Notes: generated by a model not told the origin, from the letters alone. 64,000 bases of DNA from an uncultured Chloroflexia bacterium (GCA_963740825.1 CAVUFD010000002.1:4267-68266), one strand, 5' to 3'; shown: positions 2,471-52,803, counted from the first letter of the stretch. Translations and numbers: made by a program.

Positions 2471-2480
2471 CGGCGGCACG

Positions 2481-4791: not shown

Positions 4792-6368
4792 AGGTCGGGA
4801 GGTCGGGCTCGCGGCCGGCGCGGCGGCGCGCGTGCCGCGAGACCGCCCAGGACGCCGGTCCACGCAGGAACGCGACGAGCACCGCGGGGTTCGCCACGAG
4901 CGCGGCACGCGCGTCGCGCGCGGGGCGACCGCGAGCGCGGGCCGCACGACGACGAGCAGGATCGACACCTGGTACATGAGCGTGAACGGCGCGACGAGCA
5001 GCGCCGCCAGCATCGCGGCCACGAACCCGCGCCGCTCGTCGGCGAGGATCGCCCAGACCGCCGCCACCACGGCCAACGCTGACAGCCCGACGATCAGCGG
5101 CGTCGATTCGAGGACCGTCAGCGAGAGGTTGCCGGACCGCGTGATCTGCCCGGTCGCGATCAGCGCGTCGATCCAGGCGCGATACAGGTCGACGCCCAGC
5201 AGCGCCACGCCGATCAGGGTGCGCGAGGCCGGCGAGGATCGTGCCCGCGAGGGCCCGGCGGCGCCGGACAAGCATCCACAGCAGCACGAGGCCGAGGACC
5301 GGCTTGGGCGTGAGCGCGAGCATGATCCCGAGCGGGATCCCGCGAGCCGCGCCGTCGCGGTCGCGCACGAGGAACACCGACGCCGCGAGCAGCATCGTGA
5401 CCTGCCCCACGACCAGCTCGTACACGACGGGGATGAAGCCCAGCGCGGCGATGGCGATGAGGACGCGGTCGATGGGGTCGAGGTGCCTGGTCTCGATGAC
5501 GAGGCCGGCCAGCAGCAGGACGAGGCCGATGCCCGACATCACCGCGGCGGCGGCGGGGAACGGCAGCCAGGTCAACGGGAGCGCGATCACGCCCGCGAGC
5601 GGGGCGTAGAGGAAGTCGGTGGCGATGACGCCCTTCGCGATGCCTTCGGCGCCGCGTCGGAAGATGTCGACGTCGCCCCCGAACGTCAGGGGCGCGAGGA
5701 TCGCCAGCGCGACGATGCCCATGATCCCGTTCAGCACGGCCAGGGCAAACAGATAGGGCCGGCCGCCGAGTGCCCGGTCCACGGTCGAGACGATCGCGAC
5801 GGCGATGCCGGCGCCCACCTGCGTCCGGCTCGAGGCTCCCGGCAGCGCCGCGAGCAGCAGCCCCATAGGCCAGCGGGTACCACGCGTCGAGGTTGCCGAA
5901 CAGCACCGCGATCGCGAACGGCAGCACCAGCGGCGCGACGGCGATCGCCCGGACCGCCATCGGGAAGCGCCGGATGGCCGGCGCCGACCGCCAGGCGGGC
6001 CGCGACCCAGCGCGAACCCGAGCGTCGCGCCGACGCCCCACAGCACCAGCACGACGCCGTTCGGGCAGCCACGACGACCAGCGTCATCGCCTGGGCGACG
6101 GGCGGCGGGTACGAGTAGAACAGCTCGACGGCGTCGGGCGAGGCGCCCGGCGAGCATCGCCGGGTCGTACGGGGTCTCGCCTGCGAGCACGCGCCGCGCG
6201 CCCTCGAGCAGCAGGGCCAGGTCGAAGCCGGCCTTCGGCGGGCTCGCTCTGCCACAGCGTCCAGCCGATCCAGGCGACGCCCAGCCAGACCACGAGGCCG
6301 GCCACGACCCACGGCCCGAGGCTGTCGGCGCGGAGCCGGCGATCGGTGGTGCGCGTGCCATCCGCCAC
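4780..6368 (-). pseudogene. DUF2029 / GT87-family polytopic membrane glycosyltransferase (copy A), at least 4 frame disruptions
   Basis: Membrane-protein segments are spread over three minus-strand frames: MADGTRTTDRRLRADSLGPWVVAGLVVWLGVAWIGW; GFDLALLLEGARRVLAGETPYDPAMLAG; PMGLLLAALPGASSR...IPLGIMLALTPKPVLGLVLLWML; LIGVALLGVDLYRAWIDALIATGQI... Confidence 0.5.
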
Positions 6369-6378
6369 GGCACCCAGC

Positions 6379-7276
6379 CTAGCGATCGGCCGGCACCCCG
6401 GGCCGAGCGGCGACGGCCGGGGCGGTCGCTTCGTGCCGTGGGCCGCCGAACGCCGCCAGCAGCGTCAGCAGCTGGTAGACGAGGAGCCGGGGATAGGCGA
6501 ACACCGACAGCACGACCGCGAGTGGCCAGCCGTACCGGGTCGGGGCGTAGCGCAAGCGCCAGGAACGCCAGCACGACGACGGTGGCGAGCCACAGGGCCG
6601 GGTGGATGGCGAACGGCGAGATGTTGCGGAACGCGAACGCGCCGTTGAGCCACTCGAGGCGGACGTACGCGATGCGTCGCCGCCGGCTCCAGCACGAGCT
6701 GGACCAGGCCGAGCGCGAGCAGCCACGCCACGAGGTGCAGCAGCGGGCGAAGCTCCCGCCGACCGATCCAGTAGACCGCGACCAGCACGGGCAGGAGCTT
6801 GAGGCTGCCGGCGACCGCGACGCTGGCGGGCGTGCCGAGCGGTCAGCATCAGCATCACGACCAGCTCGGCCTGGCCGACGCTGAACGCCCACAGGATCGG
6901 GAGCGCGAGGCAGCCGATGGCGATCAGCACCGGCTCGCGGAGGCCGATCCGCCGGACGGTCAGCACGAACGCTGCCGTGATCACCACCTGCCAGATCGCC
7001 GCGGCGACCGGGAACGGCAGCAGGGCGAGCGGGCGGAACAGGATGGCGAGCAGCGGCGGGTTGACGTACGGGCCGACGCCCTCGCGTCGTCGATGGGACG
7101 TACAGGGGCAGGCCCTCGTTCAGGCGGGTGCCGGCGTCGTAGTACAGGCGGGTGTCCGCGAACGGGTCGGTGGTGAGGTGGAGCACCATCGCCTGCAGGC
7201 CGATGGCCAGCCCGAACAGCGCGACGACGATGGCGAAGTAGCGCAGCAGGCGGCGGCCGCCCGGCGACAGCGGCAT
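6379..7276 (-). pseudogene. DUF2029 / GT87-family membrane glycosyltransferase (copy B), at least 3 frame disruptions
   Basis: N-terminus MPLSPGGRRLLRYFAIVVALFGLAIGLQAMVLHLTTDPFADTRLYYDAG. Later TM-like blocks (IAYVRLEWLNGAFAFRNISPFAIHPALWLATVVVLAF; LVAVYWIGRRELRPLLHLVAWLLALG; MVITAAFVLTVRRIGLREPVLIAIGCLALPILW) lie in other frames. Confidence 0.45.
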
Positions 7277-7407
7277 CGATTCGGCGGTCAGCACCCGCGC
7301 ACGATACGCCGCGTCCGCGCCCCTGCGCGAGGCGACGGCAGGTGGGTCCGGGTAGCCAATTCGTACCCCCATGAATGGCCCGGGTCCGGTGCTAGGCTGC
7401 ACCGGCC

Positions 7408-9046
7408 GTGCGGATCCCCGTGGCCCTGTACCTGCTCGCGCTCGTGGCCCGGCTCGCCGTCGCGGCCCTGTTCCCCGACCCCGCGTACCCCGATTCCTTC
7501 TACTACGTGGACGTCGCGCGCCAGCTCGCCGCGGGGCACGGATTCAACGTCGACTTCATCTGGATCTTCCCCGAGGTCGGCGGTGCGATCCCCGCCAATC
7601 CCATCCTGCCGATCCCGTCCAACGCGCACTGGATGCCGCTCGCCTCGATCGTCCAGGTGCCGTTCATCTGGCTGCTCGGCCCGACGGCGATGGCGTCGGC
7701 CCTGCCGTTCGCGTTCATCGGGGCGCTGGCCGCGCCGCTCGCGTGGGCGATCGGGCGGGACGCCGGCGCGCCGCGGTTCGTCTCGATCGGCGCCGGGATC
7801 CTGACCGCCTTCCCGGCGCTGTCGTTCGTGTACATGGCCCAGCCGGACAACTTCTCGCTGTACCAGCCGCTGGTCGCCGGGCTCGCTGTGGCTGGCCGGA
7901 CGCGGTCTGCGTGGCCACCCGCGCGACTTCGTCCTCGCCGGGCTCCTCGCCGGCGTCGCGACGCTGTCGCGCAACGACGGCGTGCTCGTGCTGGCCGTCA
8001 TCGTCGCGACCGTGCTGTGGGACCGGGTCCGTGCCCGCTGGGCGTCCGGCGGGAAGCCGGCCCGGCCGCCCCGGATCCCCCTCGCCGCGGCCGCCGGCTC
8101 GGTGGGCCTGTTCGTGCTCGCGGTCGTCCCCTGGTACGCGCGCCAGCTGGCGGTGTTCGGCCAGCTCTCGCCATCGACCTCGTCGGGCCGCGTGCTGTTC
8201 ATCCGCGACATCAGCGAGTGGAACAGCATCACGATCCCGGCCACGCTGGACCACCTCCTCGGGATGGGCATCGGCCCGCTGCTGCTGACCCGGGTCGGTG
8301 GCCTGGTCGCCGCGGCGTTCATCTTCTCGATCCTGGTCGGCGTGCTCGTGTTCGTCCCGTTCATGGTCATCGGGGCGTGGCGCCGGCGGCGCGACGCGCT
8401 GTTCGGGCCGTTCCTGGGCTACGTCGTGCTGCTGTTCGCGTTCAGCGCGATCGTGTCGGCGGTCCACGTCCCGGGCGGGACGTTCATCCACTCGGCCGTC
8501 GCGCTGGCCCCGCAGGGGTACGTGCTCGCGCTCGAGGGGATCGTCGCCGGCGCGGCCTGGCTCGCGGCACGACGGCGGGGCTGGGACTCGACCTCGGCGG
8601 CACGCGTGTTCGTCGGCGGGGCCGTCGCGTTCGGCGTCCTCGCCGCGGTCGTGGGCGCGAGCGCGGTGCACCGGAGCTGGGACGCCAAGCGCCAGAACAT
8701 GCAGGCCGTCGCGACGGCGCTCGACGCCGCGGGCGCGCCCGCGACCGACCGCGTGATGTCCATCGACGCCTCCGGCTACCGCTACTGGACGGGTCATCCG
8801 GGCGTGGTGCTGGTCAACGACCCGCTCGACACCGTGGAGCGGGTCGCGCGCGCGTACGGGATCCGGTGGCTCGTCCTCGAGCCGAAGGACAGCGTCGAGG
8901 CGGTGCGCGAGATCCTGGTCGACGACCAGCGGCCGCCGTGGGTCGGCCCGCCGATCCTCGAGCGCGACGGCGTCTCGCTCTATCCCGTCTGCCTCGACGC
9001 CGGTGACACCCGGTGCGCCACCGCCCTCGCGGGCACCAGCCGATGA
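7408..9046 (+). CDS. GT-C fold ArnT/PMT-family (COG1807, GT39/83-like) membrane glycosyltransferase #1; one frameshift near 7880
   Basis: GTG start. N-terminus MRIPVALYLLALVARLAVAALFPDPAYPDSFYYVDVARQLAAGHGF..., many TM helices, and a soluble C-terminal domain (...GIRWLVLEPKDSVEAVREILVDDQRPPWVGPPILERDGVSLYPV). It is transcribed divergently from the DUF2029 genes. Confidence 0.6.
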
Positions 9047-10690
9047 GCCGGCGCGAGGCGTGGGTCACGGCCCTGGTCGTGTTCGCGGTCGCGATCGCCG
9101 TGCGCGTCGTCGCCGCATCGGTCATCACGTTCCCCAAGCCCGAGGACACGGCCTACTACGTCGGCGTCGCGCGGAACCTCGTCGAGGGCCGCGGCCTCGT
9201 GTCCGACGCCCTGTGGAGCTACGGCACGCCGCCGCTCGTGTTTCCGCGGCCGGCGTTCGAGGTCTGGCTGCCGCTGCCGTCGCTGCTCGCGGCCATCCCG
9301 ATGGCCTCTGGCGGGCGGGCCGCGCCCCATCCCGCTCGAGGCGGCGATGCGGGCGGGCCAGGTGGTCTCCGTCGTCGCCGGCGCGATCGTGGCCGTCCTC
9401 GCCTGGCGCCTCGCCGCCGACGTCGCGGCGGAGCGCGGCCTTCCCGTCGGCCGGGCGCGAACGCTCGCGGCCGGAGCCGGGCTCACCGCGGCGGTGTACC
9501 TGCCGCTCCTGCTCCACTCCTCGCTGCCCGACTCCACGATGCTGTTCGGCGCGCTGGTCCTCGGCGCCGCGCTGCTGATGACCCGCGTCCTGCGCGACCC
9601 GCGCGGCGGGCGAGCGCTGGATGCCCGGCTGCTCGGGATCGGCGTGCTCATCGGCCTCGCGGCCCTCACGCGCAACGAGGCCGTCTGGCTCGCGCTGACG
9701 TGGGCGTGGCTGGCCTGGCGCGCCAGAGGCGCGCCGCGTGGCGTGCGGATCCGCCTCATCGGCATCGTCGCGGTCGTGAGCCTGCTCGTGTTCGCGCCGT
9801 GGGCGATCCGCGACTGGGCCGTGTTCGGGAACCCGCTCCCGGGGCAGGCCGCGACCAACGCGCTGTCGCTGAGCGGGTTCGACATCTTCGCCTGGAACCA
9901 GCCGCCGACCCTCGCCCGCTACCTCGCCGCCGGACCCGGGGGCCTGCTCGAGATGCGCGTCACCGGCCTCGGCCACAACCTGTTCAACGTCCTGCTGTTC
10001 CTGGGCATCCCGGTGTCCCTCATCGGGCTGTCGCGTGCCCTGGCAGGGGCGCGACCGGGCCCTCCGACCAGTCCTGCTGCGTGGCCGTGCTGACGTTCCT
10101 CGCCACCAGCCTGCTGTTCCCGGTCGCGACGACGTGGGGCACGTTCCTGCACGCCTCGGCGCCGGTCGCGGTGCTGCTGATCGTGTCCGCGCTCGGCGCG
10201 CTCGACGCGGGCATCGCCGCGCTGGGGCGGCGACTGGGCTGGACGCGGCCCGTGGCGTGGCTCGGGCCCGCTGCTGGCGATCTTCGCGTCGGCGCTGTTC
10301 TCGGTCGCGCTCCTGCCAGGCTTCGGCGGCAGCGCGCGATGCCTACGGCTCGCACCTATCGGGTACTGGCCGAGCAGATGGCGTCCATCGGGGCCCCGCT
10401 CGACGGCAGCGCCCCCGTCATCCACGACTTCCCGATCTGGCTCGCCGAGACCGAGCGCGTCCCCACCCTCGCGCTGCCCGACGAGGCCCCGTCGGACGTC
10501 CTCGACCTCGCGACCCACTTCGGCGCCAAGTGGCTGATCGTCGCCAAGGCCGAGCACGGCCAGTGGCCGGCGGTCCTCGACGGGCCGGACCCCGACGCGT
10601 CCTGCTTCGAGGAGGTCCTGCTGCCGATCCCCGCCGACCCAGCGGACGCGGAGGCGATCGAGGGCATCCGCGTGTTCCGGATCGCGTGCG
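9043..10690 (+). pseudogene. GT-C ArnT/PMT-family membrane glycosyltransferase #2; at least 4 frameshifts; 3' end uncertain
   Basis: The ATG overlaps the stop of gene #1 (ATGA). N-terminus MSRREAWVTALVVFAVAIAVRVVAASVITFPKPEDTAYYVGVARNLVEGRGL. Later blocks (AGQVVSVVAGAIVAVLAW...; VAVLTFLATSLLFPVATTWGTF; LLAIFASALFSVALLPGFGG; KWLIVAKAEHGQWPAVL) are in shifting frames. No in-frame stop precedes the downstream kinase. Confidence 0.45.
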
Positions 10691-10763: not shown

Positions 10764-11898
10764 GATGGCCGCGGCCGATACACTCCGCGCGATGGATGCA
10801 CCCAGGGGGGAGCCCGCGGCGAGCCGCTACGACGAGCTCCACGCACAGGCCGCCGACGCCTTGGGCTTCGCCGCGAACACGCTGCGCGGCATCCGCGATC
10901 GCTACCGCCAGGCGTACATCGACGAGATGGCGCGCTGGGAGGACCTGGACCAGGACCTCGTGGGGCTCGAGCGAGCCGGCGGGCTCCTGACTGCAGAGGC
11001 CGACCTTGCCTCCGTCGCCCCCAGCGATGGCGCGGCCGTGGCCGCGGAGGCGGGCGCCGCCGACGCGCAGCTCCGCATGGCCCGCACCGATGCCGTGGAG
11101 TCGACCGACGCCCTCGGCCGCCACGAGGCCGAGCTGTCGCGCCTCGAGCTCGCCATCCGCAACCTCGAGACGACCTGGCTGTTCGTGGAGCGGGGCGACG
11201 CGTCGCTCGTCACCGACCAGGACATGCCCAGGCTGCCCAGCGAGCTGCAGATGCGGATCGTCGAGGCACAGGAGGGCGAGCGCGTCCGCCTCGCCCAGGA
11301 GATCCACGACGGACCGGCGCAGGCGCTGTCGAACGCGATCTTCCAGGTCGAGTTCATCGACCGGGTCTTCGACTCGGATCGCGACATGGCCCGGACCGAG
11401 CTGCGGTTCCTGCGCGAGCTGCTGCGGCGCGAGCTCGGCGACCTTCGCACCTTCATCGGCCAGCTGCGGCCGCCCGTGCTGGTCGAGCTCGGCCTCGATG
11501 GGTCGATCGCCGACACGGTCGCCAACCAGGCGGCGCTGTCGGGCCTGCGCATCACGACCCAGTTGGTGGCCCCCGCGGGCGACATCCCCGAGGCTACGCA
11601 AACCGTCGTACTTCGCGTCGTGCAGGAGGCCCTGCAGAATGTCCGCAAGCACGCGGGCGCGACGAACGTGGTGGTCGCCACGCTGCTGGACGGTGGAGAA
11701 TGGGTGTTGGAGGTCCGCGACGACGGTCGCGGGTTCGATACCGGAGCGGTCGCGGCGCGAGGTCGTCGCAACTTCGGGCTCCAGTTCATGCGCGAGCGGG
11801 CCGAGCTTGTCGGCGCACGCTTTGAAGTACGTTCGCGGCCAGAGGCGGGCACGGTCGTCCGGCTGGCGATTCCGATGACGCGAAAGGAGAGCGGATGA
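10764..11898 (+). CDS. cytoplasmic DegS-like sensor histidine kinase (coiled-coil N-terminus, HisKA_3, HATPase_c)
   Basis: No TM segment. H-box RVRLAQEIHDGPAQALSNAIFQ, N-box VVQEALQNVRKHAGA, G-boxes DDGRGFD and GRRNFGLQFMRERAELVG. The start at the ATG near 10764 is inferred. Confidence 0.65.
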
Positions 11899-12638
11899 CC
11901 GAGTACCAGGGCCCCGAGCGCCGAAGGGGCAATTCGGACCGGCGCAACCAGTCGTACGAACGGGTGCGGATCGTCATCGTCGACGACCACGCCCTGTTCC
12001 GGGTCGGCATCCGCCAGATCCTCGAGCGGGAGCCCGACTTCGAGATCGTCGCCGAGGCCGATGACGCCCGGTCGGCGATGGATGCGGCGTTCGCGACCAA
12101 CCCCGACGTGATCCTGATGGACCTCTCGCTGCCCTCGCCCGGCGGCATCGAGACGACCCAGCGGGTCAAGCGCGAGCTCCCGGCGGCGGCGATCGTCGTC
12201 CTGTCGACGGAAGAGGACGAGGACGCGCTGTTCGACGCCATCAAGGCCGGCGCGGCCGCGTTCATCCTCAAGGACATCGCGCCCGAAGACCTCGTGATGA
12301 TCATCCGCCGCGTCGTCGCCGGCGAGTACCTGATCAACGACAAGGTGTTCGCCCGGCCCGCGGTCGCCTCGCGCGTGCTCAAGGAGTTCCGCGAGCTCGC
12401 CGTCTACGGCCAGGAGGCCGCCCCGATCTTCGCGCCGCTGTCGCCGCGCGAGGTCGAGATCCTGGACAACATCGCGCAGGGCATGACCAACAAGCAGGTC
12501 GCCTACGCCCTGTCGATCTCCGAGCAGACCGTCAAGAACCACATGAGCTCCATCCTCCGGAAGCTGTCCGTCAACGATCGGACCCAGGCGGTCGTGTACG
12601 CGATGCGCCAGGGCTGGATCCGGATGCCGGAGGACTGA
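11895..12638 (+). CDS. NarL/LuxR-family response regulator (REC + LuxR HTH, unusually long interdomain linker)
   Basis: ATGA overlap with the kinase stop. RIVIVDDHALFRVGIRQIL...VILMDLSLP (REC), and a LuxR HTH (LSPREVEILDNIAQGMTNKQVAYALSISEQTVKNHMSSILRKL) separated from REC by about 70 aa. Confidence 0.8.
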   Translation: MTEYQGPERRRGNSDRRNQSYERVRIVIVDDHALFRVGIRQILEREPDFEIVAEADDARSAMDAAFATNPDVILMDLSLPSPGGIETTQRVKRELPAAAIVVLSTEEDEDALFDAIKAGAAAFILKDIAPEDLVMIIRRVVAGEYLINDKVFARPAVASRVLKEFRELAVYGQEAAPIFAPLSPREVEILDNIAQGMTNKQVAYALSISEQTVKNHMSSILRKLSVNDRTQAVVYAMRQGWIRMPED

Positions 12639-12671
12639 GGGGAAGCGCCCGAGCGGGGGAAGCGTCACGCG

Positions 12672-13848
12672 ATGACCACGCCCGCCGACCCGCCGCCCGC
12701 CTCCGGGGCCCAGCTAGCCGTCGTCCTGGGCGCGGATGTCGTCGGCCTCGACCGCGAGCTGACCGAGATCGACATGCTCGTCGGACAGGCGAAGGCCGAG
12801 GCCGTCCGCCACGAGCAGAAGCGCGCGCAGCTGGCCGAGAAGCTGTCGTCCGCCGAGTCGGCGCGAGGGCACCGAGGCCTGGGCGCAGCTCGTCACGCTG
12901 ACGCGGCGATCCGTGCTGATGGAGGCGCAGGTCGACGTCCTCGAGGGCAAGCGCCGCGCGCTCGCCCGTCATCGCGACGCCATCGCGTCGCTCGTGGACG
13001 CCCTCGACGCCTTGCCGGCTGCCGAGGGGGCCCCGTCCGACGTGGCCGGTGCCGCGGCGGCCTCCGCGTCCCTGTCGCGGGTGGTGATGAGCGCCCAGGA
13101 GGACCTGCGACGCGACATCGCCCGCGCGATGCACGACGGCCCCGCGCAGTCGCTGACCAACATCGTGCTCCAGGCCGCGATCGTCGAGCGGCTGATGGAC
13201 CGCGAGCCCGACAGCGCGAGGGGCGAGCTGCGGCTGCTGGTGGCGATGGTCCAGCAGACCCTCGACGCGACCAAGAACTTCATCTTCGACGTCCGCCCGA
13301 TGGTGCTCGACGACCTGGGCGTGGTCCCGACGCTCCGGCGCATGGCGCGCGACCGGGGCCGGAAGGCAAAGATCCCAGTGGAGTTCGACTCGCTCGGCCA
13401 GGACCGGCGGCTGCCGATGGACATGGAGAGCACGATCTTCCGGATCCTCGACGAGGCCCTGGCGGCCTACCTCGGCCTGCTCCCCGATCGCGTGCTGGTG
13501 CATCTGGACTGGACGGACGAGCTCGAGGCCCGCGTGGTCGCCGAGCGCTCGGCGGCGATGCCGGGCGACGGCGAGGCGCTGCCCGAGGTCCCGACCGGGG
13601 ACGTGCCCGACGCGATCAAGCAGATGATCCAGGACCGCCACGACGCCCACCAGGCCGCCGTGGAGGCGGCCGAGCACGCCGCGATCGTGGAGCTGCCGGC
13701 CGGCGCCCTCAAGGACGTGACCGATCGTGCCTCGTCGATCGGCGGACGCGTGGAGCTCCTGGCGGGCGGCGGCGAGCTGCGCCTGCTGGTTCCGCTGCCG
13801 CGGGAGACGGCCGCGACGACCGGTGGGGGCGCGATCCGGGCGTCATGA
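12672..13848 (+). CDS. second DegS-like HisKA_3 protein with degenerate ATP-binding domain (putative pseudokinase/phosphatase partner); frameshift near 12866
   Basis: Coiled-coil N-terminus and H-box RRDIARAMHDGPAQSLTNIVLQ. The C-terminal domain lacks recognisable N, G1 and G2 boxes. No TM segment. Confidence 0.55.
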
Positions 13849-14018
13849 TCGACCGGCGCGTGCCCGGCAGCGGCGGCGAGACCGGCCCCGGGATCCTCGA
13901 GACCTCGATCGTGCTCGGCCTGGCCCTGCTGCTGGCCGCCGTCATCGTCGTGTTCTTCGGCGGCGCGCTGGCGGACACGATCGGCCTGCTCGTGGACGCG
14001 GCCCACGGCGGCTCCTGA
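13845..14018 (+). CDS. Flp/TadE-like prepilin (57 aa)
   Basis: The ATG overlaps the TGA of the upstream HK-like gene (ATGA). Sequence MIDRRVPGSGGETG|PGILETSIVLGLALLLAAVIVVFFGG: a G-XXXX-E prepilin-type motif followed by a hydrophobic helix. Confidence 0.5.
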   Translation: MIDRRVPGSGGETGPGILETSIVLGLALLLAAVIVVFFGGALADTIGLLVDAAHGGS

Positions 14019-14159: not shown

Positions 14160-14330
14160 ATGGCGCTCATCACCTCGCTGCTCGCCTCGTTCCAGAAGGA
14201 CGAGGAAGGCCAGGGTCTCGCCGAGTACGCGCTGATCCTCGCCCTCATCGCGATCGTCGCGATCGTTGCCCTCATCTTCCTGGGCAACCAGGTCTCGTCG
14301 ATCCTGTCGACGGTCGGCGACTCGATCTAG
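14160..14330 (+). CDS. flp: Flp-family type IVb prepilin (56 aa)
   Basis: MALITSLLASFQKDEEG|QGLAEYALILALIAIVAIVALIFLGNQVSSILSTVGDSI. Classic G-XXXX-EY Flp motif, with an SD gggagg 8 nt upstream. Confidence 0.85.
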   Translation: MALITSLLASFQKDEEGQGLAEYALILALIAIVAIVALIFLGNQVSSILSTVGDSI

Positions 14331-14351
14331 TCGCTCACCGAAACGCAGCCT

Positions 14352-14380
14352 GAAGGCCGCCGAGGTGTTCGGCGGCCTTC
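14352..14380 (+). terminator. perfect 12-bp-stem hairpin downstream of flp1 (GAAGGCCGCCGA-ggtgt-TCGGCGGCCTTC)
   Basis: Inverted repeat located 22 nt after the flp1 stop. There is no U-tract, as is common in high-GC genomes. Confidence 0.5.
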
Positions 14381-14522
14381 GCGCATCCAGGCACCAAGCT
14401 CAGGGTGCCGGCGTGCAACAGTGGCCTGATGGTCAGGGTTGACGCAGTTGAGCAAGGCAACCTATTGTTCGCCCTCGCCGCGGCTGGGTCCGCGAGCTTT
14501 GTGGAAAGGAGGTGAACCATCC

Positions 14523-14687
14523 ATGTTCAATGCACTGATCGCTCTCATCAATCGTGACGAGGAAGGCCAGGGTCTCGCCGAGTACGCGCTGATCCTCGCC
14601 CTCATCGCGATCGTCGCCATCGTGGCGCTGATCTTCCTGGGCAACCAGGTCTCCACGATCCTCTCGACGGTCGGCGACTCGATCTAA
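14523..14687 (+). CDS. flp: Flp-family prepilin paralog 2 (54 aa)
   Basis: MFNALIALINRDEEG|QGLAEYALILALIAIVAIVALIFLGNQVSTILSTVGDSI. The mature part differs from flp1 by a single residue (S/T), while the leaders differ. SD AGGAGGTG. Confidence 0.85.
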   Translation: MFNALIALINRDEEGQGLAEYALILALIAIVAIVALIFLGNQVSTILSTVGDSI

Positions 14688-14802
14688 CCAGGTCGACAGC
14701 CAGAGTAGCGAAGCGCCGGCTGCCGACCAAGGCGGCCGGCGCGTTGCTACCGGGGGGCTGGACGCTCCGCGTAGAGTTGGATCGAATGGAGGTGACTCGA
14801 GC

Positions 14803-15000
14803 ATGATCGTCTTGGCGTTCAAGGCGCTCATTCAGCGGTTCACCGATCGTGACGACGACAACGGCCAGGGGCTGGCCGAGTACGCACTCATCCTTGCTCT
14901 CATCGCCGTCATCGCCATCGTCGCCCTGTTCTTCCTGGGAAGCCAGGTCAGCGACAAGCTCAGCGTCATCGGCGACACGATCGACTCGGTGGCACCCTGA
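14803..15000 (+). CDS. flp: Flp-family prepilin paralog 3 (65 aa, diverged)
   Basis: MIVLAFKALIQRFTDRDDDNG|QGLAEYALILALIAVIAIVALFFLGSQVSDKLSVIGDTIDSVAP. SD GGAGGTG. Confidence 0.8.
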   Translation: MIVLAFKALIQRFTDRDDDNGQGLAEYALILALIAVIAIVALFFLGSQVSDKLSVIGDTIDSVAP

Positions 15001-15032
15001 AGGGGCGCTCCACTCAACCAACGCACCACAGC

Positions 15033-15069
15033 GACGACCCGCTGGCCTAGCCGGCGGGTCGTTTCGTGT
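15033..15069 (+). terminator. intrinsic-terminator-like hairpin after flp3 (ACGACCCGC ... GCGGGTCGT followed by TTCGTGT)
   Basis: 9-bp GC stem followed by a short T-rich tail, 33 nt after the flp3 stop. Confidence 0.45.
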
Positions 15070-15312
15070 CCGGCACCACGGACAGCTCCGGGACCGGCAG
15101 CTCCGGGCCTGATCGCGCGCGTCCTCGAGCGGGTGGTGCGCGCCCAGTGTCGGGCTGTTGACATCGACGCACGCAGCCTTGCAGCGGACCTTACGATGTG
15201 CGGCGGTTCCCACCATTTCCTGCCAATGGTCCTAGGCCTATTGGCTGGTATCCGGCCAAAACACCGCTGCTAGAGTGGTGCCACCTGTCACATCCGGCAC
15301 GGGGAGGTTCTG

Positions 15313-16311
15313 TTGAAGCGCTCGAACCGGTTGGTCCTGCTTATCGGGATCTTCCTCGCACTCATCGCGTTCGTCTTGATCCTGGTGACCGTCAGCGGCG
15401 GTGGAAACAAAACGACCACCGAGAAGCCGACGACGACGACGTTGGTCGTGGCCACGAAGGCCATCGACCTCGGCGCCATCATCCAGTCGACCGACGTCAC
15501 GACCAACGACGTCGCGATCACCGACTTCCCGCCCAACGGGATCAAGCTCACCAGCCTGGTCGTCGGCCAGCTCGCGCGCCAGCCGGTGACCTCCGGCCAG
15601 GCGGTGACCACCGACGTCCTGCAGGGCGCCTCCGGCAGCATCCAGAACATCCAGGTCCCCGTCGGCCACGTCGCGATGGCCGTCCAGGTGGACCAGGTCA
15701 CGGGCGTCGGCACGATCATCAAGGCCGGCGACTACGTCGACCTCGTCACCGGCATCACCGGGACCGACAAGGTGCCGCTCGTGGTGTCCCCGACGATCCG
15801 ACCCGGTGGTGGCGGCGGCAACGCGACGCCGGCCCCGCGCGGCGGCTTCGCGCCCGAGGTCCTGCCCTACAACCCGACGACCGTCAAGACGCTCATCCAG
15901 GGTGTCCAGGTGCTCGGCACGCTGCTCCCGCCGCCCAGCTCGTCCAGCAACGGCAACGCGCAGGCGTCGCCCGGCACGGGCGCCGAGACGACCCTCAACG
16001 GCCAGCAGCAGATCGTGGTCCTCTCGGTCACGTCGCAGGACGTCGAGGTCATCAAGTTCGCCCAGATCGACGGCAACATCTCGCTGGTCCTGCGGTCCAC
16101 CGATGACTGCCAGCCCCTCGAGAGCCCGTCGCCCTCGCCGAGCGCCAGCCCGTCCGCGTCGCCCGGCCCCAGCCTGGCTCCGCTCTCGCCCTGCCCGGCC
16201 TTCCCGACGACCGGCGTCACCCTTCGCAAGCTGGTCGACGACTTCGGCGTCCTGCCTCCGCAGGTGATCGAGGTCATCCAGCCGACCCCGTACCCGCAGT
16301 TCGCACCGTAA
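15313..16311 (+). CDS. cpaB: Flp pilus assembly protein CpaB/RcpC (SAF domain)
   Basis: One N-terminal TM (LVLLIGIFLALIAFVLILV). SAF/CpaB-like core LVVATKAIDLGAIIQSTDV...QVPVGHVAMAVQVDQVTGVGTIIKAGDYVDLV, and a Pro/Ser-rich linker. Confidence 0.8.
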   Translation: MKRSNRLVLLIGIFLALIAFVLILVTVSGGGNKTTTEKPTTTTLVVATKAIDLGAIIQSTDVTTNDVAITDFPPNGIKLTSLVVGQLARQPVTSGQAVTTDVLQGASGSIQNIQVPVGHVAMAVQVDQVTGVGTIIKAGDYVDLVTGITGTDKVPLVVSPTIRPGGGGGNATPAPRGGFAPEVLPYNPTTVKTLIQGVQVLGTLLPPPSSSSNGNAQASPGTGAETTLNGQQQIVVLSVTSQDVEVIKFAQIDGNISLVLRSTDDCQPLESPSPSPSASPSASPGPSLAPLSPCPAFPTTGVTLRKLVDDFGVLPPQVIEVIQPTPYPQFAP

Positions 16312-16424
16312 GCGCGCCTCCACCGCGGGTCCACGACCCGCTCCCGCGACCCGATGGGCCGGTACACCACCGGCCCATCGACGTCCGATCCATCTGACAT
16401 CCCGGCCACCTGAATCCGAGACCC

Positions 16425-17699
16425 ATGGCAGACCAGATCCGCGTCCTGATCGTCGACGACATCCCGGAGACCCGCGATCACCTCTCGAAGCTCCTGGGCT
16501 TCGAGGCGGACATCGAGGTCGTGGGATCGGCGGCGTCCGGGCGCGAAGCCATCGAGATGGCGGCGAAGCTCACGCCGGACGTCGTCCTGATGGACATCAA
16601 CATGCCCGACATGGACGGCATCTCGGCGACGGAACGCCTGTCCGCCGAGGTGCCGACGGCCGCCGTCGTGATGATGTCGGTCCAGGGCGAGGCGGACTAC
16701 CTCCGCCGGTCGATGCTGGCCGGGGCTCGCGAGTTCCTCGTCAAGCCGTTCTCCTCGGACGAGCTCACCTCGTCGATCCGGCAGGTCTACACGCGCGAGC
16801 AGGAAAAGCTGTCGCGCATCGCGCTCGCACCACCCGTGGCCAGCAGCGCCGGCGGCACCGCCGTCGCGGTCCGGCCGGTCGTGGAACGCGAGAGCGGCGA
16901 GCCCGGCCGCGTGGTCGCGGTGTTCGGCCCCAAGGGGGGCGTCGGGCGCACGACGCTGGCGGTCAACCTCGCGGTTGCCGCGGCGACCGAGCTCGGCCAG
17001 CGGACCTGTCTCGTGGACGCGTCGTTCCAGTTCGGGGACATCGGCGTCCTGCTCAACCTCAACCCCAAGAACAAGTCCATCGCGGACGTCATCCCGGAGC
17101 TCGAGCACGGGGACATCGAGTCGCTCGACGCCTTCGTCATCAGTCACTCGGCCGGGATCAAGGTCCTGCTGGCGCCCCCGTCGCCGGAGATGGCCGAGCT
17201 CATCACCCCCGCCGGCGCGAAGCGCATGGTGGAAGCCCTCCGCGCCCAGAACGACCTGGTCGTCGTCGACTGCCCGTCGACCTTCAACGACACGACGCTG
17301 GCCATCCTCGACCAGGCCGATACCGTGCTCACGATGCTCTCGCTCGAGATCACGTCGATCAAGAACATCCGCCTCTTCCTCGAGGTGGCGGACCAGCTGG
17401 GGTACAGCCAGGACAAGGTCCGGCTCGTCCTCAATCGCGCCGATTCGTCCCTGGGCATCCGCGTCGCCGACGTGGAGCACTCGATCGGGCGGCGCGTGGA
17501 CCACACGATCGTCTCCGATGGCCGGAGCGTCGTCTACGCCCTCAACCGGGGCGTGCCGTTCTTCCTCTCCAATCGGGAGGCGCAGGTCTCACAGGACGTG
17601 CTGCGTCTCGCCTCGGCCGTGGTTGGCGCGACTCCGGCAGACGCCGAAGAGCCCAGCCGGAAGGCCGGTCAGAAGAAATCGCTGTTCGCGTGGCGATGA
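16425..17699 (+). CDS. cpaE: CpaE/TadZ pilus-assembly ATPase-like protein (ParA/MinD fold) with a canonical N-terminal REC domain
   Basis: REC (IRVLIVDDIPETRD...VVLMDINMPDMDG) followed by a deviant Walker A GPKGGVGRTTLAVNLA. Confidence 0.85.
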   Translation: MADQIRVLIVDDIPETRDHLSKLLGFEADIEVVGSAASGREAIEMAAKLTPDVVLMDINMPDMDGISATERLSAEVPTAAVVMMSVQGEADYLRRSMLAGAREFLVKPFSSDELTSSIRQVYTREQEKLSRIALAPPVASSAGGTAVAVRPVVERESGEPGRVVAVFGPKGGVGRTTLAVNLAVAAATELGQRTCLVDASFQFGDIGVLLNLNPKNKSIADVIPELEHGDIESLDAFVISHSAGIKVLLAPPSPEMAELITPAGAKRMVEALRAQNDLVVVDCPSTFNDTTLAILDQADTVLTMLSLEITSIKNIRLFLEVADQLGYSQDKVRLVLNRADSSLGIRVADVEHSIGRRVDHTIVSDGRSVVYALNRGVPFFLSNREAQVSQDVLRLASAVVGATPADAEEPSRKAGQKKSLFAWR

Positions 17700-17747
17700 A
17701 TGCGACAGCGCGCACAATGGCCGCACACGGCTGAAGGGGTGTAACCG

Positions 17748-19154
17748 ATGTCCCTCTTGAAGCGGATCGAAAGCGCTCGACCCGGCACGGGTCCGGCGCC
17801 GGACGGATCCAACGTTCCTGCCCCGGCGCCGGGTGGCGGCGGGAGCCAGACGCCGGCCGCGCCGCAGGGTCGCCTCATGAGTCAGGCACCTGTTCGCGAG
17901 TCGTTCCGGGACGTCAAGTTCCGGATCCAGAGCCGCGTCATCCAGGACCTGGACCCGAAGCTCGACCTGTCCAACCAGGTCGAGGTGCGCCGGCAGATCG
18001 AGGAGATCTTCGGCAAGGTCATCGACGAGGAAGGCCTCGCGCTGACCCGCGCCGAGCGCGTCCGGATGCTGGAGCAGATCACCGACGAGATCATCGGCCT
18101 CGGCCCGTTGGAGCCCCTGCTCCGCGACGAGTCGATCTCGGAGGTCATGGTCAACGGGCCGCGCCAGGTCTACATCGAGCGCAGCGGCCGCCTCGAGCTC
18201 ACGAACGTCGTGTTCCAGAACGACGACCACGTCATGCGCATCATCGATCGGATCATCGCTCCGATCGGTCGCCGCGTTGACGAGTCGTCGCCGATGGTCG
18301 ACGCTCGCCTCACCGACGGCTCCCGCGTGAACGCCATCATCCCGCCCCTGTCCCTGGTCGGCCCGGTCATCACCATCCGGAAGTTCTCGGCCTCCCCCTT
18401 CACGGTCGACGACCTCATCCGGTTCGGCACGGCCACGCCGGACATGTTCGAGTTCCTGCGCGCCGCGGTCGAGGCCCGCCTGAACGTCTTCGTCAGCGGC
18501 GGCACCGGCTCGGGCAAGACCACCACGCTCAACGTCCTGTCCTCGTTCATCCCGAACGACGAGCGCATCGTCACGATCGAGGACGCCGCCGAGCTGCAGC
18601 TCCGCCAGGAGCACGTGGTGACGCTCGAGTCCCGGCCCCCCAACATCGAGGGCAAGGGCCAGATCCCGATCCGTGAGCTCGTCCGCAACTCGCTGCGGAT
18701 GCGGCCCGACCGCATCATCGTCGGCGAGTGCCGCTCCGGCGAGGCCCTGGACATGCTCCAGGCCATGAACACCGGCCACGATGGCTCGATGTCCACCGGC
18801 CACGCGAACAGCCCGCGCGACATGCTCGCCCGGCTCGAGACGATGGTGCTGATGGCGGGCGTCGACCTGCCGGTCCGCGCCATCCGCGAGCAGATCGCCT
18901 CCGCGGTGGACGTCATCGTCCACCAGTCGCGGCTCAAGGACGGCACGCGCCGCATCACGAACATCACCGAGGTCCAGGGCATGGAGGGTGATGTCATCGT
19001 CATGCAGGACGTGTTCGTGTTCGAGCAGACGGGCGTCGTCGAAGGCAAGATCCAGGGCCGCCTGAAGCCGACCGGCATCCGGCCCAAGTTCGTCGAGAAG
19101 TTCGAGGTCCAGGGCATCCACCTGCCGCCGGGCCTGTTCGGCTTCAGCTACTAA
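17748..19154 (+). CDS. cpaF: CpaF/TadA secretion ATPase
   Basis: Walker A VSGGTGSGKTT, plus IVTIEDAAEL and IIVGECRSGEALDMLQAMNTGHDGSMSTGHANS. Confidence 0.9.
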   Translation: MSLLKRIESARPGTGPAPDGSNVPAPAPGGGGSQTPAAPQGRLMSQAPVRESFRDVKFRIQSRVIQDLDPKLDLSNQVEVRRQIEEIFGKVIDEEGLALTRAERVRMLEQITDEIIGLGPLEPLLRDESISEVMVNGPRQVYIERSGRLELTNVVFQNDDHVMRIIDRIIAPIGRRVDESSPMVDARLTDGSRVNAIIPPLSLVGPVITIRKFSASPFTVDDLIRFGTATPDMFEFLRAAVEARLNVFVSGGTGSGKTTTLNVLSSFIPNDERIVTIEDAAELQLRQEHVVTLESRPPNIEGKGQIPIRELVRNSLRMRPDRIIVGECRSGEALDMLQAMNTGHDGSMSTGHANSPRDMLARLETMVLMAGVDLPVRAIREQIASAVDVIVHQSRLKDGTRRITNITEVQGMEGDVIVMQDVFVFEQTGVVEGKIQGRLKPTGIRPKFVEKFEVQGIHLPPGLFGFSY

Positions 19155-19179
19155 CCAGGCTGGAGAGGGAGACATCGCC

Positions 19180-20197
19180 GTGGAGCCCACGACCATCCTC
19201 ATCGCCGGCATCGCCGCCCTCGCGATCCTCGTGATCGCCGTGGGCATCGCGATGTCCGGTGGCGGCTCGGGCGTCAACGCGCGCCTCGAGCGCTACGCCT
19301 CGGGCCGGGAAGCGAAGCCCGCGGCCGGCGCCTCCGGGCAGGGCGGCCTCCAGGAGGCCCTCCAGTCCAGCCAGGCCATGGCCCAGCTCAACAAGGTCGT
19401 CGAGCAGCGCGACTTCGGGGCGAACCTCGCCCGCGAGATCGCCCGCGCCGACCTGCGGCTGAAGGTCAGCGAGTACCTCGTGATCTGGGCCGCCTGCATC
19501 ATCGGCGTGCCGATCCTCATGGTCGTCGCTGTCGGTGGCGTTCCCCGCCCTGCGCAACCCGATCGCGCTCCTGATCGGCGCGCTGATCGGGTTCATGCTC
19601 CCGCGCTTCTGGCTCAACCGCCGCAAGTCGAGCCGGCTGAACTCGTTCAACAAGCAGCTGCCGGACACGATCACGCTGATCGCGAACGCGCTCCGCGCGG
19701 GCTCGTCGTTCCTCCAGGCGATCGAGCTCGTCGTCCGCGAGTCGCGGCCCCCGATCTCCACGGAGTTCGGGCGAGTCATCCGCGAGGTCAACCTCGGCCT
19801 GTCGTTCGAGGTCGCGCTGGAGAACATGGTCCGGCGCGTGAGGTCGGACGACCTCGAGCTGATGGCGACCGCCATCTCGATCCAGCACACGGTCGGCGGC
19901 AACCTCGCCGAGATCCTCGACTCGATCGCCTTCACCATCCGCGAACGGGTCCGGATCAAGGGCGAGATCAGGACCCTGACGGCGCAGCAGCGCCTGTCGG
20001 GCTACGTCGTCGGCTTCCTGCCCATCGGCCTCGCCGGCTTCCTGTTCATCGCGGCGCCCGGCTTCATGTCGCCGATGTTCGACAACCGGGTCTCCCTGCT
20101 CGGCCTGCCTGGTGGCGTGCTCATCCTGTTCCTCGGCGGGTTCGCGATGTTCATCGGGTTCATGCTCATCCGCAAGATCGTGGACATCGAGGTCTAG
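19180..20197 (+). CDS. tadB: TadB (T2SS-F domain inner-membrane platform protein); frameshift near 19540
   Basis: N-terminal TM and periplasmic part lie in one frame. The T2SSF domain (LPDTITLIANALRAGSSFLQAIELVVRES...) lies in another. The join sits at a G/C run. Confidence 0.75.
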
Positions 20198-20200
20198 CCG

Positions 20201-21137
20201 ATGGAATCCCTGTTGCCCTTTCTCATCGCCGGCGTCGCGGCGATCGCGATCCTCCTGATCTTCGTCGGCCTGGCCGGCGGCTCGCCCGTGGATCCCGTCC
20301 AGGCGCGCCTGACCCAGCTGGGCACGATGCAGGCCAAGAACCTCGAGGAGCTCGAGCTCCAGCAGCCATTCATCGAGCGCACGCTGCGTCCGCTGGCGCA
20401 ACGGTTCTCGGGTGCGACCTCGCGCATGGCGAGCACCTCGTTCACCGCGACCACCGAGAAGCGTCTCGCGCTCGCCGGCAACCCGGGCGGCCTGCGCGTC
20501 GCGGACTGGCTGGGCATCAAGGCGGTCGGCGCGATCGTCGGCGGCGTGATCTTCGGCCTGTTGTTCTTCGTCGTCGGGTTCATGAACCTGCCGCTCATCC
20601 TGCGGCTGGCGATGATCCCGATCGGGATTGGCGTTCGGCTACACGATCCCCGAGTTCTGGCTCGGCGGCCGCGTCCGCAAGCGCCAGAAGGCCATCCTGC
20701 TCATGATCCCGGACGCCCTGGACCTGCTGACGATCTCCGTCCGCGCGGGCCTCGGCTTCGACGGGGCGCTGGGCAAGGTCGTCGAGAAGCTCAAGGGACC
20801 CCTCACCGAGGAGTTCCGGCGGGCGCTGGCGGAGATCCGCGTCGGCAAGGCCCGGCGCGACGCGCTCCGGGACATCGTCCCGCGGACCGAGGTCCCGGCC
20901 CTCACCAACTTCATCGGGGCGATCATCCAGGCCGAGCAGCTCGGCGTGTCGATCAGCAAGGTGCTCCAGGTCCAGTCGGAGCAGCTGCGCATCGAGCGCC
21001 GGCAGCGCGCAGAGGAGATGGCGGCCAAGGCGCCGATCAAGATGCTGTTCCCGCTCGTCGGGTGCATCTTCCCGTCGCTGTTCATCGTCATCCTCGGCCC
21101 GGCGATCATCCTGATCATGATCAACCTCCACACCTAG
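20201..21137 (+). CDS. tadC: TadC (T2SS-F domain platform protein); frameshift near 20628
   Basis: MESLLPFLIAGVAAIAILLIFVGL... then, in a second frame, IPDALDLLTISVRAGLGFDGALGKVVEKL... Confidence 0.7.
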
Positions 21138-21149
21138 GCCTCCCGTCCG

Positions 21150-21539
21150 ATGGCGACCACCGCCGCCACCGGTGTCGCGCGCAACGTCGAGCGATCGACG
21201 CTGCTCGCCGAGCGGCTGGAGACGGCCGGCTCGCTGTGGGCCAAGTTCATGGGGTTGATGGGGCGGCCGAACCTGCCGCCCGGCGACGGGCTGTGGCTGC
21301 CGGCCAGCAACGGGATCCACATGATGTTCATGCGCTTCCCGATCGACGCCGTGTTCGTGACGCGCGCGGATCCGTCCGGCGTGCGGCGCGTCCGCTCCGT
21401 GCACCCGTCGCTGGCCGCGTGGACGGGCCTCGTGCCCTTGATCCGGGGCGCCGACGGGGTCCTGGAGCTGCCGGTCGGGACCATCGCCGCGACCGGGACC
21501 GTCGTGGGCGACCGCGTGGAGATCGTGGAGCGCTCGTAG
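21150..21539 (+). CDS. DUF192 (COG1430) domain protein
   Basis: LWLPASNGIHMMFMRFPIDAVFV, typical of DUF192. It is the last gene of the tad operon, 13 nt after tadC. Confidence 0.6.
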   Translation: MATTAATGVARNVERSTLLAERLETAGSLWAKFMGLMGRPNLPPGDGLWLPASNGIHMMFMRFPIDAVFVTRADPSGVRRVRSVHPSLAAWTGLVPLIRGADGVLELPVGTIAATGTVVGDRVEIVERS

Positions 21540-21589: not shown

Positions 21590-22268
21590 ATGGCGACGAC
21601 GCTGCGCAGGCCGCTCGACCGGCTCCTCGATCTCGCGCTGCCCGCGACCTGCCCGGGCTGTGGGGCGGAGGGCCCGCCGATCTGTGCGTCATGCCGGGTC
21701 GCCCTCGACGGCCGTCTGGCGCTGCCGGCCGGGACGCCGCTCGGGCTCGCCGACGGCCCGCCGGAGCCGCTCCTCCAGCTCGAGTGGTGTGCGCCGTTCA
21801 GCGGCACGCTCCGGCGGGCGCTCCACGCGCTGAAGTACGCGGGCGAGCGCCGGCTCGCCGAGCCGCTGGGCCAGGCCGTGGCCGACCGATGGCGCCGGGC
21901 GGGCGCCGGCGGCGACCTGTTCGTCCCGATCCCGGTCCATGCCACCCGACGCCGCGAGCGGGGCTACGACCAGGCCGAGCTGATCGCGGCGGCGGCCGGC
22001 CTCGCGCTCCCGCTGCCGTGTGTCGCCGGCCCTCGACCGCGTCCGCGCGACGACCGCCCAGTACCACCTCGACCGACGCCACCGGGCGGCGAACGTCGCC
22101 GAGGCGTTCGTCGTGCGGGCGGGCGCTCGCCAGGCGGTGCATGGGCGCTGGATCGTGCTCGTCGACGACGTCGTGACGACCGGCGCCACGCTGAGTGCCG
22201 CGGCGGAGGCGTTGCTCGACGCCGGCGCGCTGGCGGTCAGCGCGATCGCGGTCGCCCGCGAGCGATGA
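21590..22268 (+). CDS. comFC: ComF family phosphoribosyltransferase (ComFC-like); frameshift near 22020
   Basis: N-terminal zinc finger CPGCG...CASCR, and a PRTase motif WIVLVDDVVTTGATL located in a second frame. Confidence 0.65.
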
Positions 22269-22397
22269 CGTCGCGGGCCGGTCGAGTCATCGGTGGCCGC
22301 GCCTGCCCCGTCTATACTCGACCTCCCAGCGGGCCCGGTCCGCCGGCCCGTCGCCCCCCGCAGCCAGGTGCCGAGTCCGCGCCGGGAAGGTTTGCCG

Positions 22398-23039
22398 TTG
22401 AGGACGATCGTCAGGGGCAAGAACCTCGAGGTTCCCGACCGGGTCCGGCTGTACGCCGAGCGCAAGTTCTCGCGCCTGGACCGGCTGTTCGACGACAACA
22501 CCGACGCGGTCGTGGAGCTCTCCAACGAGGCCCACCGCAGCGCCTCCGACGCCCACATCGCCGACGTCACGATGGTCGTCGACGGCCGCACCATGCGCAG
22601 CCGGGCCGCCGCCGGCTCGTACCAGGCCGCGCTCGACACGGTCGTGGACAAGGTCGAGCGGCAGGCGATCGACCACAAGGAGAAGCCGCGGGTCCGCGCC
22701 CGGCCCGAGGAGGAGAAGGCGATCCTGCGCCGGATCGCCGACGGCACGGCCGAGCCCGGCAACGATCGCGAGATCGTCAAGACCAAGCGATTCGCGATCG
22801 AGCCGATGTTCGAGGAGGACGCGGTCACCGCGATGGAGGAGCTCGGGCACGACTTCTACGTGTTCGTGAACGCCGAGAACGAGCGGATCAGCGTCCTCTA
22901 CCGACGGCGCGACGGCCACTACGGGCTGATCGAGCCGATGATGGGCGGCGACTACACGCCGGACCGGCGGAGCGGCAGCAAGGGCGGGACGAAAGCCGGC
23001 TCGAAGGGCGCGGCAAAGGCGGGTCGAGCCCAGGGCTGA
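22398..23039 (+). CDS. hpf: ribosome hibernation promoting factor (long HPF/RaiA)
   Basis: TTG start with SD GGGAAGG. RTIVRGKNLEVPDRVRLYAERKFSRL, plus the C-terminal dimerisation domain FYVFVNAENERISVLYRRRDGHYGLI. Confidence 0.8.
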   Translation: MRTIVRGKNLEVPDRVRLYAERKFSRLDRLFDDNTDAVVELSNEAHRSASDAHIADVTMVVDGRTMRSRAAAGSYQAALDTVVDKVERQAIDHKEKPRVRARPEEEKAILRRIADGTAEPGNDREIVKTKRFAIEPMFEEDAVTAMEELGHDFYVFVNAENERISVLYRRRDGHYGLIEPMMGGDYTPDRRSGSKGGTKAGSKGAAKAGRAQG

Positions 23040-42364: not shown

Positions 42365-42374
42365 TCAGGTCCCC

Positions 42375-52784: not shown

Positions 52785-52803
52785 CGGTGCCGTCATCCCG
52801 GCG

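Follow-up and report, generated by a model that had tools for sequence, protein, structure and literature searches.

A DUF192 gene closes a secretin-less Tad pilus operon in Limnocylindria and probably encodes a cytoplasmic accessory of the pilus machine

Tad pili function in adhesion, biofilm formation, predation and DNA uptake, and the list of their parts, comprising Flp, TadV, RcpCAB and TadZABCDEFG, is treated as settled. In monoderm Actinobacteria, exemplified by the tad2003 locus of Bifidobacterium breve, the flp locus of Mycobacterium and the competence pili of Micrococcus, the loci have no secretin and tadV is often unlinked; these loci carry TadE/TadF pseudopilins and no DUF192 gene. 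Here we describe a Tad locus at positions 14160-21539 of a 64,000-nucleotide (64-kb) stretch of DNA from an uncultured Chloroflexia bacterium (GCA_963740825.1, CAVUFD010000002.1:4267-68266), hereafter the window, the final gene of which encodes a DUF192 protein. This last gene is the new element of the locus, the rest of the operon being of known Tad type, and its product is probably an undescribed cytoplasmic accessory of the Tad pilus machine. If this is true, the pilus would gain a component on its least understood side, that of prepilin processing and hand-over to the platform, and DUF192 (COG1430, UPF0127), a widespread family whose solved structures have stood unexplained since 2010, would gain its first function.

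The window locus has the same gene order as the tad locus of Aggregatibacter and the cpa locus of Caulobacter, and shares with them Flp prepilins bearing a G|xxxxEY site, CpaB/RcpC, a ParA-like TadZ/CpaE, the TadA/CpaF ATPase, and both TadB and TadC. Unlike these loci, it has no RcpA secretin, RcpB, TadD, TadE/F/G or TadV, its operon is closed by an extra DUF192 gene, and its TadZ receiver is canonical rather than atypical. Relative to the actinobacterial loci, the window possesses CpaB and DUF192, and its only extra prepilin-like open reading frame (ORF) encodes 57 amino acids (aa). Loci from a Dehalococcoidia metagenome-assembled genome (MAG; L087/L088) and from a clade described below in which DUF192 is fused to TadV (L083, L085 and L086) share with the window the order cpaE(REC)-cpaF-tadB-tadC-DUF192, with DUF192 proteins that are 39-44% identical. 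In those loci TadV follows DUF192 or is fused to it, whereas in the window and in 80 Limnocylindria genomes the gene that follows is comF.

The DUF192 gene (PF02643; 21150-21539, + strand) encodes 129 aa and begins 12 nt after the end of tadC at 21137, a spacing that the initial annotation had given as 13 nt. The protein scores 52.4 bits on PF02643 against a cut-off of 27 and matches by profile the structures 3PJY from Sinorhizobium (E 3e-13) and 3M7A from Novosphingobium (E 8e-13), and it has the DUF192 fold; its NCBIfam label is merely 'hypothetical protein'. The only solved DUF192 structures are structural-genomics entries, and a fold search returned no functional analogue. Exact-sequence look-ups of the window CpaF and DUF192 yielded no record, and in the published literature searched on DUF192, COG1430 and UPF0127 we found neither an assigned function nor a link to pili; a literature search on Limnocylindria and pili gave nothing relevant. 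3PJY and 3M7A carry signal peptides and are periplasmic, whereas the window DUF192, which has neither a signal peptide nor a transmembrane segment, and its Tad-linked kin are cytoplasmic. These relatives form a subfamily of approximately 125 aa without signal peptides, and an N-terminal hydrophobic segment was seen in only 2 of the screened 105-170-aa representatives. An IHMxFMRFPID motif is additional in the window DUF192 and its Tad-linked relatives by comparison with 3PJY and 3M7A. Residues D66 and E106 do not vary within the subfamily, and the periplasmic proteins of known structure have them too; H57 is almost invariant, but only in the cytoplasmic subfamily, and the solved periplasmic members lack it.

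DUF192 homologues at 75-94% identity are abundant in metagenomes, where the named ones derive from Chloroflexi MAGs, and the best 80 genome matches all come from MAGs classified as Candidatus Limnocylindria, Limnocylindrales or 'uncultured Chloroflexia'. Judged by sequence similarity, the source organism, a soil bacterium, belongs to the class Limnocylindria (Chloroflexota). Loci were collected with narrower DUF192 alignments, because the sequences of a broad initial one (A1) diverged too far to retrieve them. Within the class, tadC lies immediately 5' of DUF192 in every locus with upstream sequence (80/80), down to 50% DUF192 identity, and the synteny of the region is conserved class-wide as regulator, kinase, flp, cpaB, cpaE, cpaF, tadB, tadC, DUF192, comF and hpf.

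Beyond the class, where the evidence for a link between DUF192 and Tad is decisive, we assembled a metagenome sample of 80 further subfamily members with the FMRFPID motif, 38-74% identical to the seed, and assessed the 40 loci that had at least 1.4 kb of upstream sequence. DUF192 was found directly after the T2SSF gene (tadC) in 16 of these loci and directly after the ATPase gene (tadA) in 4, while a tad gene was present elsewhere in the flank in 5; among shorter contigs, a partial tadC or ATPase gene was located upstream in 13 of 28. Enrichment of the cytoplasmic subfamily at the 3' end of the Tad motor/platform block is very strong. Two unrelated secretin-bearing Tad loci end in tadB-tadC-DUF192 (L091 and L095/L096), and a third secretin-bearing type (L144) has the order rcpC-secretin-TadZ::TadA fusion-DUF192. 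The initial annotation had suggested that DUF192 might be a Tad component not yet characterised, and had set against this idea a random distribution of DUF192 relative to tad loci. The distribution is not random, as DUF192 follows tadC in all 80 class members and tadC or tadA in 20/40 metagenome loci, and the idea is therefore well supported by comparative evidence. Co-occurrence with tadC likewise extends to Dehalococcoidia, the fusion clade and secretin-bearing lineages, with fusion or adjacency to a peptidase in two phyla.

The connection with the peptidase is seen in P0260 (297 aa), in which DUF192 and Peptidase_A24 occupy a single chain. This DUF192::A24 fusion is represented by six clusters of 297-302 aa with 60-100% mutual identity, five of which retain DxxTRRIPN, the first of two catalytic motifs, and all six of which have the second, GxGDxK. 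The fusion gene is situated directly after tadC and overlaps its stop codon in L083, L085 and L086, all of which are short-read contigs. DUF192 forms the N-terminus of the fusion and TadV its C-terminal part; an AlphaFold2 model (predicted local distance difference test score, 90) consists of a beta domain (residues 1-120) that a linker of some 13 residues joins to seven helices. The topology indicated by loop charges, namely an RRIP loop after D177 and a basic loop after helix 6, places the catalytic aspartates D177 and D233 on the cytoplasmic face of the membrane, as is DUF192. Prepilin leaders are cleaved on the cytoplasmic side, where the catalytic aspartates of A24 peptidases lie. As separate genes, the two partners adjoin in the Dehalococcoidia MAG, where cpaF, tadB, tadC, DUF192 (124 aa) and TadV/Peptidase_A24 (166 aa) follow one another with overlapping stops and starts, and on a plasmid of the clostridial Alkaliphilus sp. 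B6464, where a DUF192 gene begins 4 nt after an annotated prepilin peptidase. The DUF192::TadV protein resembles the bifunctional peptidases of the PilD/GspO type, in which an A24 membrane domain likewise bears an additional cytoplasmic domain, on the side of the active site. The extra domain of PilD, however, is a Zn-binding N-methyltransferase region, while DUF192 is an unrelated all-beta fold and, in the window, a separate protein.

We propose that DUF192 would act on the cytoplasmic side of the inner-membrane part of the Tad machine, alongside the A24 aspartates and the prepilin leader, where it would most likely help to present or process the prepilin, or else link TadV with the TadB/TadC platform. 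Replication of the fusion with TadV, together with the coupling of the genes within operons, favours a part in processing the prepilin or handing it over. Taking the locus as a whole, we think it likely that the window encodes a secretin-less Tad pilus in which DUF192 is an accessory at the cytoplasmic face, the prepilin peptidase is encoded elsewhere in the genome, assembly is gated through CpaE, and the interruptions seen in two of the genes are errors of assembly. More tentatively, and as a possibility that we would not yet favour, the cytoplasmic DUF192 could be an unrecognised core accessory of many Tad pili, with or without a secretin, that docks to TadB/TadC and aids the peptidase on the leader, the enzyme in Limnocylindria being perhaps a distant or non-canonical one.

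Several observations weigh against such a role. Fifteen of the 40 metagenome DUF192 genes have no tad gene nearby, and these contexts hold PP2C, FHA, TPR or glycosyltransferase genes. An archaeal DUF192 adjoins a CPBP protease with no pilus link, and a DUF192 with a signal peptide on a Halomonas plasmid lacks pilus context. As unlinked members exist, the DUF192 family as a whole is not specific to pili. The 80 Limnocylindria loci amount to approximately one evolutionary observation, since the whole neighbourhood is syntenic, and tadV adjoins DUF192 in a minority of lineages only, so that a role specific to TadV is not the sole reading. Furthermore, neither experiment nor published description ties DUF192 to pili.

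DUF192 might instead be a regulatory adaptor through which two-component or Ser/Thr-kinase signalling reaches the Tad ATPase or platform, the part that PilZ-type proteins play for type IVa pili. We hold this to be unlikely. It nevertheless deserves serious weight, because adjacency to tadC or tadA is much commoner than adjacency to tadV, DUF192 is retained without tadV, a fusion to a regulator exists, and phosphatase and FHA genes are found beside some members. The fusion (P0180; L084 160-1290) is a 376-aa ORF that combines a REC-GerE regulator with a complete DUF192; it stems, however, from a lone metagenomic contig of 1.3 kb, and its regulator part shares only 30% identity with the window regulator at 11895-12638, whereas the fusion partner that is replicated, in six clusters, is the peptidase. 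A PP2C phosphatase gene follows the cytoplasmic DUF192 in three loci without tad genes (L104 4846-5610, L119 7267-8031 and L124 6269-7033), and three FHA-domain proteins precede DUF192 in another (L093 3752-7907); these neighbours hint at a link to Ser/Thr phospho-signalling. In loci of the L144 type DUF192 directly follows the fused TadZ::TadA ATPase, and in the window kinases flank the operon and the CpaE receiver is canonical. The DUF192 protein itself, on the other hand, has no evident nucleotide- or phospho-binding motif.

That DUF192 is an unrelated passenger, kept beside tadC by inherited gene order, seems improbable to us. The conservation of the neighbourhood from regulator to hpf throughout the class would suit a passenger, as would the metagenomic homologues without tad neighbours and the breadth of a family that extends to periplasmic and archaeal proteins with no pilus genes around them. 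Adjacency of tadC and DUF192 nevertheless recurs in lineages that differ considerably in envelope type and in the genes around it, start codons overlap the stops before them, and a diverged clade has DUF192 fused to TadV; by chance, a position directly after tadC would be expected for approximately one in thousands of genes.

The Pfam families Peptidase_A24, TadE, Tad (PF13400) and Secretin were not found in the 64-kb window when all coding segments with a high G+C content at third codon positions (GC3) and the proteins of the locus were searched. An A24 profile built from 64 TadV/CpaA-type sequences and run on every six-frame ORF gave nothing above 8 bits in the window; the same profile gives 130-136 bits for true TadVs and still 19 bits for a clostridial peptidase of very divergent sequence. 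As the initial annotation had stated, the window thus contains no recognisable TadV/CpaA, secretin or TadE/F/G. A search of the 80 Limnocylindria genomes for A24 genes up to 10 kb from the tad operon found none, and 67 DUF192-type tad loci that have 6.5 kb or more of upstream sequence likewise contain none. Where a DUF192-type tad locus does include an A24 gene, this gene adjoins DUF192 or is fused to it (L083-L088 and L151), and in Limnocylindria comF takes the slot after DUF192 where Dehalococcoidia have tadV. Given that the G|xxxxEY site of A24 peptidases is retained in the Flp leaders, we infer that the peptidase gene of Limnocylindria has left the operon and that an A24 peptidase is to be expected elsewhere in the genome.

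Alternatively, DUF192 could itself replace the prepilin peptidase and cut the Flp leader. The lack of A24 genes in the window and in the 67 loci would be explained in this way, the cytoplasm is the side on which leaders are cleaved, and D66 and E106 are invariant and H57 nearly so. We nevertheless regard a substitute peptidase as very improbable: the peptidases encoded in such loci accompany or are fused to DUF192 and retain both catalytic aspartate motifs, which argues that the two proteins cooperate rather than substitute for one another; the solved periplasmic members do not have H57; the structural neighbours of DUF192 include no protease; and an unlinked tadV is normal in monoderm Tad systems such as those of Bifidobacterium and Mycobacterium.

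The genes ahead of DUF192 all lie on the + strand and occur in the order that had been proposed for them, namely three flp genes, cpaB, REC-cpaE/tadZ, cpaF/tadA, tadB and tadC. The prepilin genes are flp1 (14160-14330; Flp_Fap E 7e-5), flp2 (14523-14687; Flp_Fap E 4e-4), which starts with an ATG at 14523 and not at 14520 as first annotated, and flp3 (14803-15000, 65 aa; Flp_Fap E 7e-5, Class_IIIsignal 2e-3); all three Flp_Fap matches fall under the Pfam gathering score. Flp1 has the leader MALITSLLASFQKDEEG and the mature N-terminus QGLAEY, its processing site, like that of Flp2, being EEG|QGLAEY, while that of Flp3 is NG|QGLAEY. An unbroken hydrophobic helix follows each site, and the aligned mature parts of Flp1 and Flp2 differ at a single residue. 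GC-rich inverted repeats are located 3' of each flp gene (14352-14380, 14705-14750 and 15034-15062); the one behind flp1 is a perfect repeat of 12 bp, and the one behind flp3 forms a hairpin with a T-run. Pilin genes that are closed by hairpins and placed before the assembly genes are the usual layout for strongly expressed pilins.

Downstream of the prepilin genes, cpaB/rcpC (15313-16311; RcpC E 4e-13, SAF) encodes a protein with a membrane anchor at its N-terminus that scores 105.8 bits on the NCBIfam equivalog model TIGR03177 (pilus_cpaB) against a cut-off of 71. It is followed by cpaE/tadZ (16425-17699), which encodes a receiver (Response_reg 9e-29) joined to a ParA/MinD-type ATPase (AAA_31, CbiA, ParA), and by the secretion ATPase gene cpaF/tadA (17748-19154; T2SSE E 1e-65, TadA-family model TIGR03819 352 bits). 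The platform proteins are encoded by tadB (19180-20197), with a T2SSF match (2e-20) on the C-terminal part of its product, and tadC (20201-21137; T2SSF 9e-21). These genes make up a type IVc (Tad/Flp) pilus operon on the chromosome; it is ordinary for the Tad family and lacks a secretin, a form to be expected in a cell that has no outer membrane.

The receiver domain of CpaE had been called canonical, and an alignment bears this out: D11, D12, D57, S85 and K107 correspond to the CheY signature residues D12, D13, D57, T87 and K109. The motif of the acceptor aspartate is retained in 56/61 related loci. In the structure of Eubacterium rectale TadZ, an atypical receiver-fold domain forms the N-terminus of a ParA-like protein; the window CpaE differs in having all five phospho-relay residues, and its receiver therefore appears phosphorylatable. 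Wherever a Limnocylindria locus has sufficient flanking sequence, a block of two-component genes precedes its tad genes. In the window this block comprises, all on the + strand, a sensor histidine kinase (10816-11898; HisKA_3 E 9e-15, HATPase-type C-terminus) that is a likely regulator, a NarL/LuxR-type response regulator with REC and GerE domains (11895-12638; Response_reg 4e-24, GerE 6e-22) and a second HisKA_3 kinase-like gene (12672-13848; HisKA_3 9e-13) with one frame break near 12855-12913. Phosphorylation-dependent control of pilus assembly via CpaE is plausible from these features, and the neighbouring kinases may phosphorylate the CpaE receiver and so gate assembly. For Limnocylindria, which are abundant uncultured Chloroflexota of soil and freshwater, the locus points to a pilus that would be regulated through a phosphorylatable CpaE.

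Between the second kinase-like gene and flp1 lies the 57-aa prepilin-like ORF (13845-14018, + strand; GC3 0.98), whose product has G|PGILET followed by a hydrophobic helix. It matches no Pfam or NCBIfam family, but shares with the Flps a G-x-G-x-x-E motif, aligned at G17, G19 and E22, and a hydrophobic stretch. A six-frame scan for G-x4-E motifs followed by a hydrophobic stretch identified only four genuine prepilin-like ORFs in the window, namely this ORF and the three Flps; with no TadE or Tad Pfam match in the window, it is the sole extra prepilin-like ORF to set beside the pseudopilins of other systems. By tblastn it was found only in relatives whose DUF192 identity is approximately 75% or more. 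We consider its product a candidate minor pilin. Its start codon overlaps the stop codon of the upstream kinase-like gene (ATGA, 13845-13848), which suggests that a signalling gene and a pilin-like gene may be translationally coupled.

Both platform genes are interrupted, a feature absent from the initial annotation, tadB by one +1 frame break near 19530, evident as a switch in GC3 frame, and tadC by one at 20614-20632. The contigs most similar to the window in public data are long-read soil MAGs, one of which (L001) is likewise fragmented; the relative L002 is intact. Relative to the intact L002 proteins TadB (336 aa) and TadC (311 aa), each window gene has one extra base, with 95% identity past the break in TadB and 96% in TadC; GC3 is approximately 0.97 on either side of the breaks and codon bias is undiminished. 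A frame map revealed at least 15 single-base frame breaks in the window, inside otherwise well-conserved genes that include glycosyltransferases, a kinase-like gene, comF, Sua5 and release factor 1, the last of these split at the SSG|PGGQ junction (...KRSSG / ...PGGQ). Frame-broken stretches include 1337-2443, 4787-7306, 9034-10245, 12669-12913, 21605-22238, 46857-47434 and 51686-52805. Given the intact L002 pair, the breaks elsewhere and the unchanged codon bias, we are nearly certain that those in tadB and tadC are indels of the assembly and not decay. Such a pattern is consistent with unpolished long-read data assembled from a genome with 72% GC, which makes pseudogene calls anywhere in the window unsafe. 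That the operon is a decaying cluster of pseudogenes, as its two frame-shifted genes might imply, is thus scarcely credible, with similar breaks throughout the window extending even to release factor 1, a similarly fragmented long-read relative beside an intact one, and codon bias kept on both sides of each break.

Apparent fusions of T2SSF to DUF192, DUF192 to comF and DUF192 to hpf (P0122, P0123, P0155, P0133, P0157, P0166, P0188 and P0250) were rejected, as they contain wrong-frame stretches and result from read-through in indel-rich assemblies. An IS110-family transposase gene (Transposase_20, DEDD_Tnp_IS110) is present on the - strand of the window at 54051-54917, in three or four frame-broken pieces.

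The secretin-bearing loci exhibit variations of their own. The TadZ::TadA (T2SSE) fusion of L144 (7793-9952; 719 aa), also found in L122, L141 and L170, is a natural one; in loci of this type neither TadB nor TadC can be recognised between the ATPase and DUF192, and a conserved coiled-coil protein of approximately 770 aa with no Pfam match is encoded downstream. The large proteins encoded after DUF192 in L095 (694 aa), L097 (675 aa), L144 (767 aa) and L091 (510 aa) were considered as a conserved partner and rejected, being mutually non-homologous and absent from the window. L097 also contains, on the minus strand at 1-3044, a cluster resembling flp-tadE-tadF-tadG (60 aa, 146 aa, 268 aa and a PF13400 Tad protein), 5 kb from a DUF192 gene without an adjacent tadC.

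Beyond the operon, a frame-broken gene for a comF-like phosphoribosyltransferase (21590-22238, + strand; Pribosyltran) marks the downstream boundary and lies outside the pilus system, with hpf (22341-23039, + strand; Ribosomal_S30AE, S30AE_C) after it. All Limnocylindria have this pair (21590-23039 in the window) after the tad operon; a different lineage that is Chloroflexota-like (L138 10335-12954) encodes a second T2SSE ATPase of 380 aa between comF and hpf. The adjacency of pilus genes to comF might reflect a role in DNA uptake, or merely the old synteny comF-hpf-secA. Further along the window, the region after the ATP synthase operon (40170-43005) contains a Gly/Val-rich low-complexity ORF with GLGVG repeats, ambiguous in strand and frame, and, on the - strand, a gene for a cadherin-like repeat protein with a weak match to Cadherin_4.

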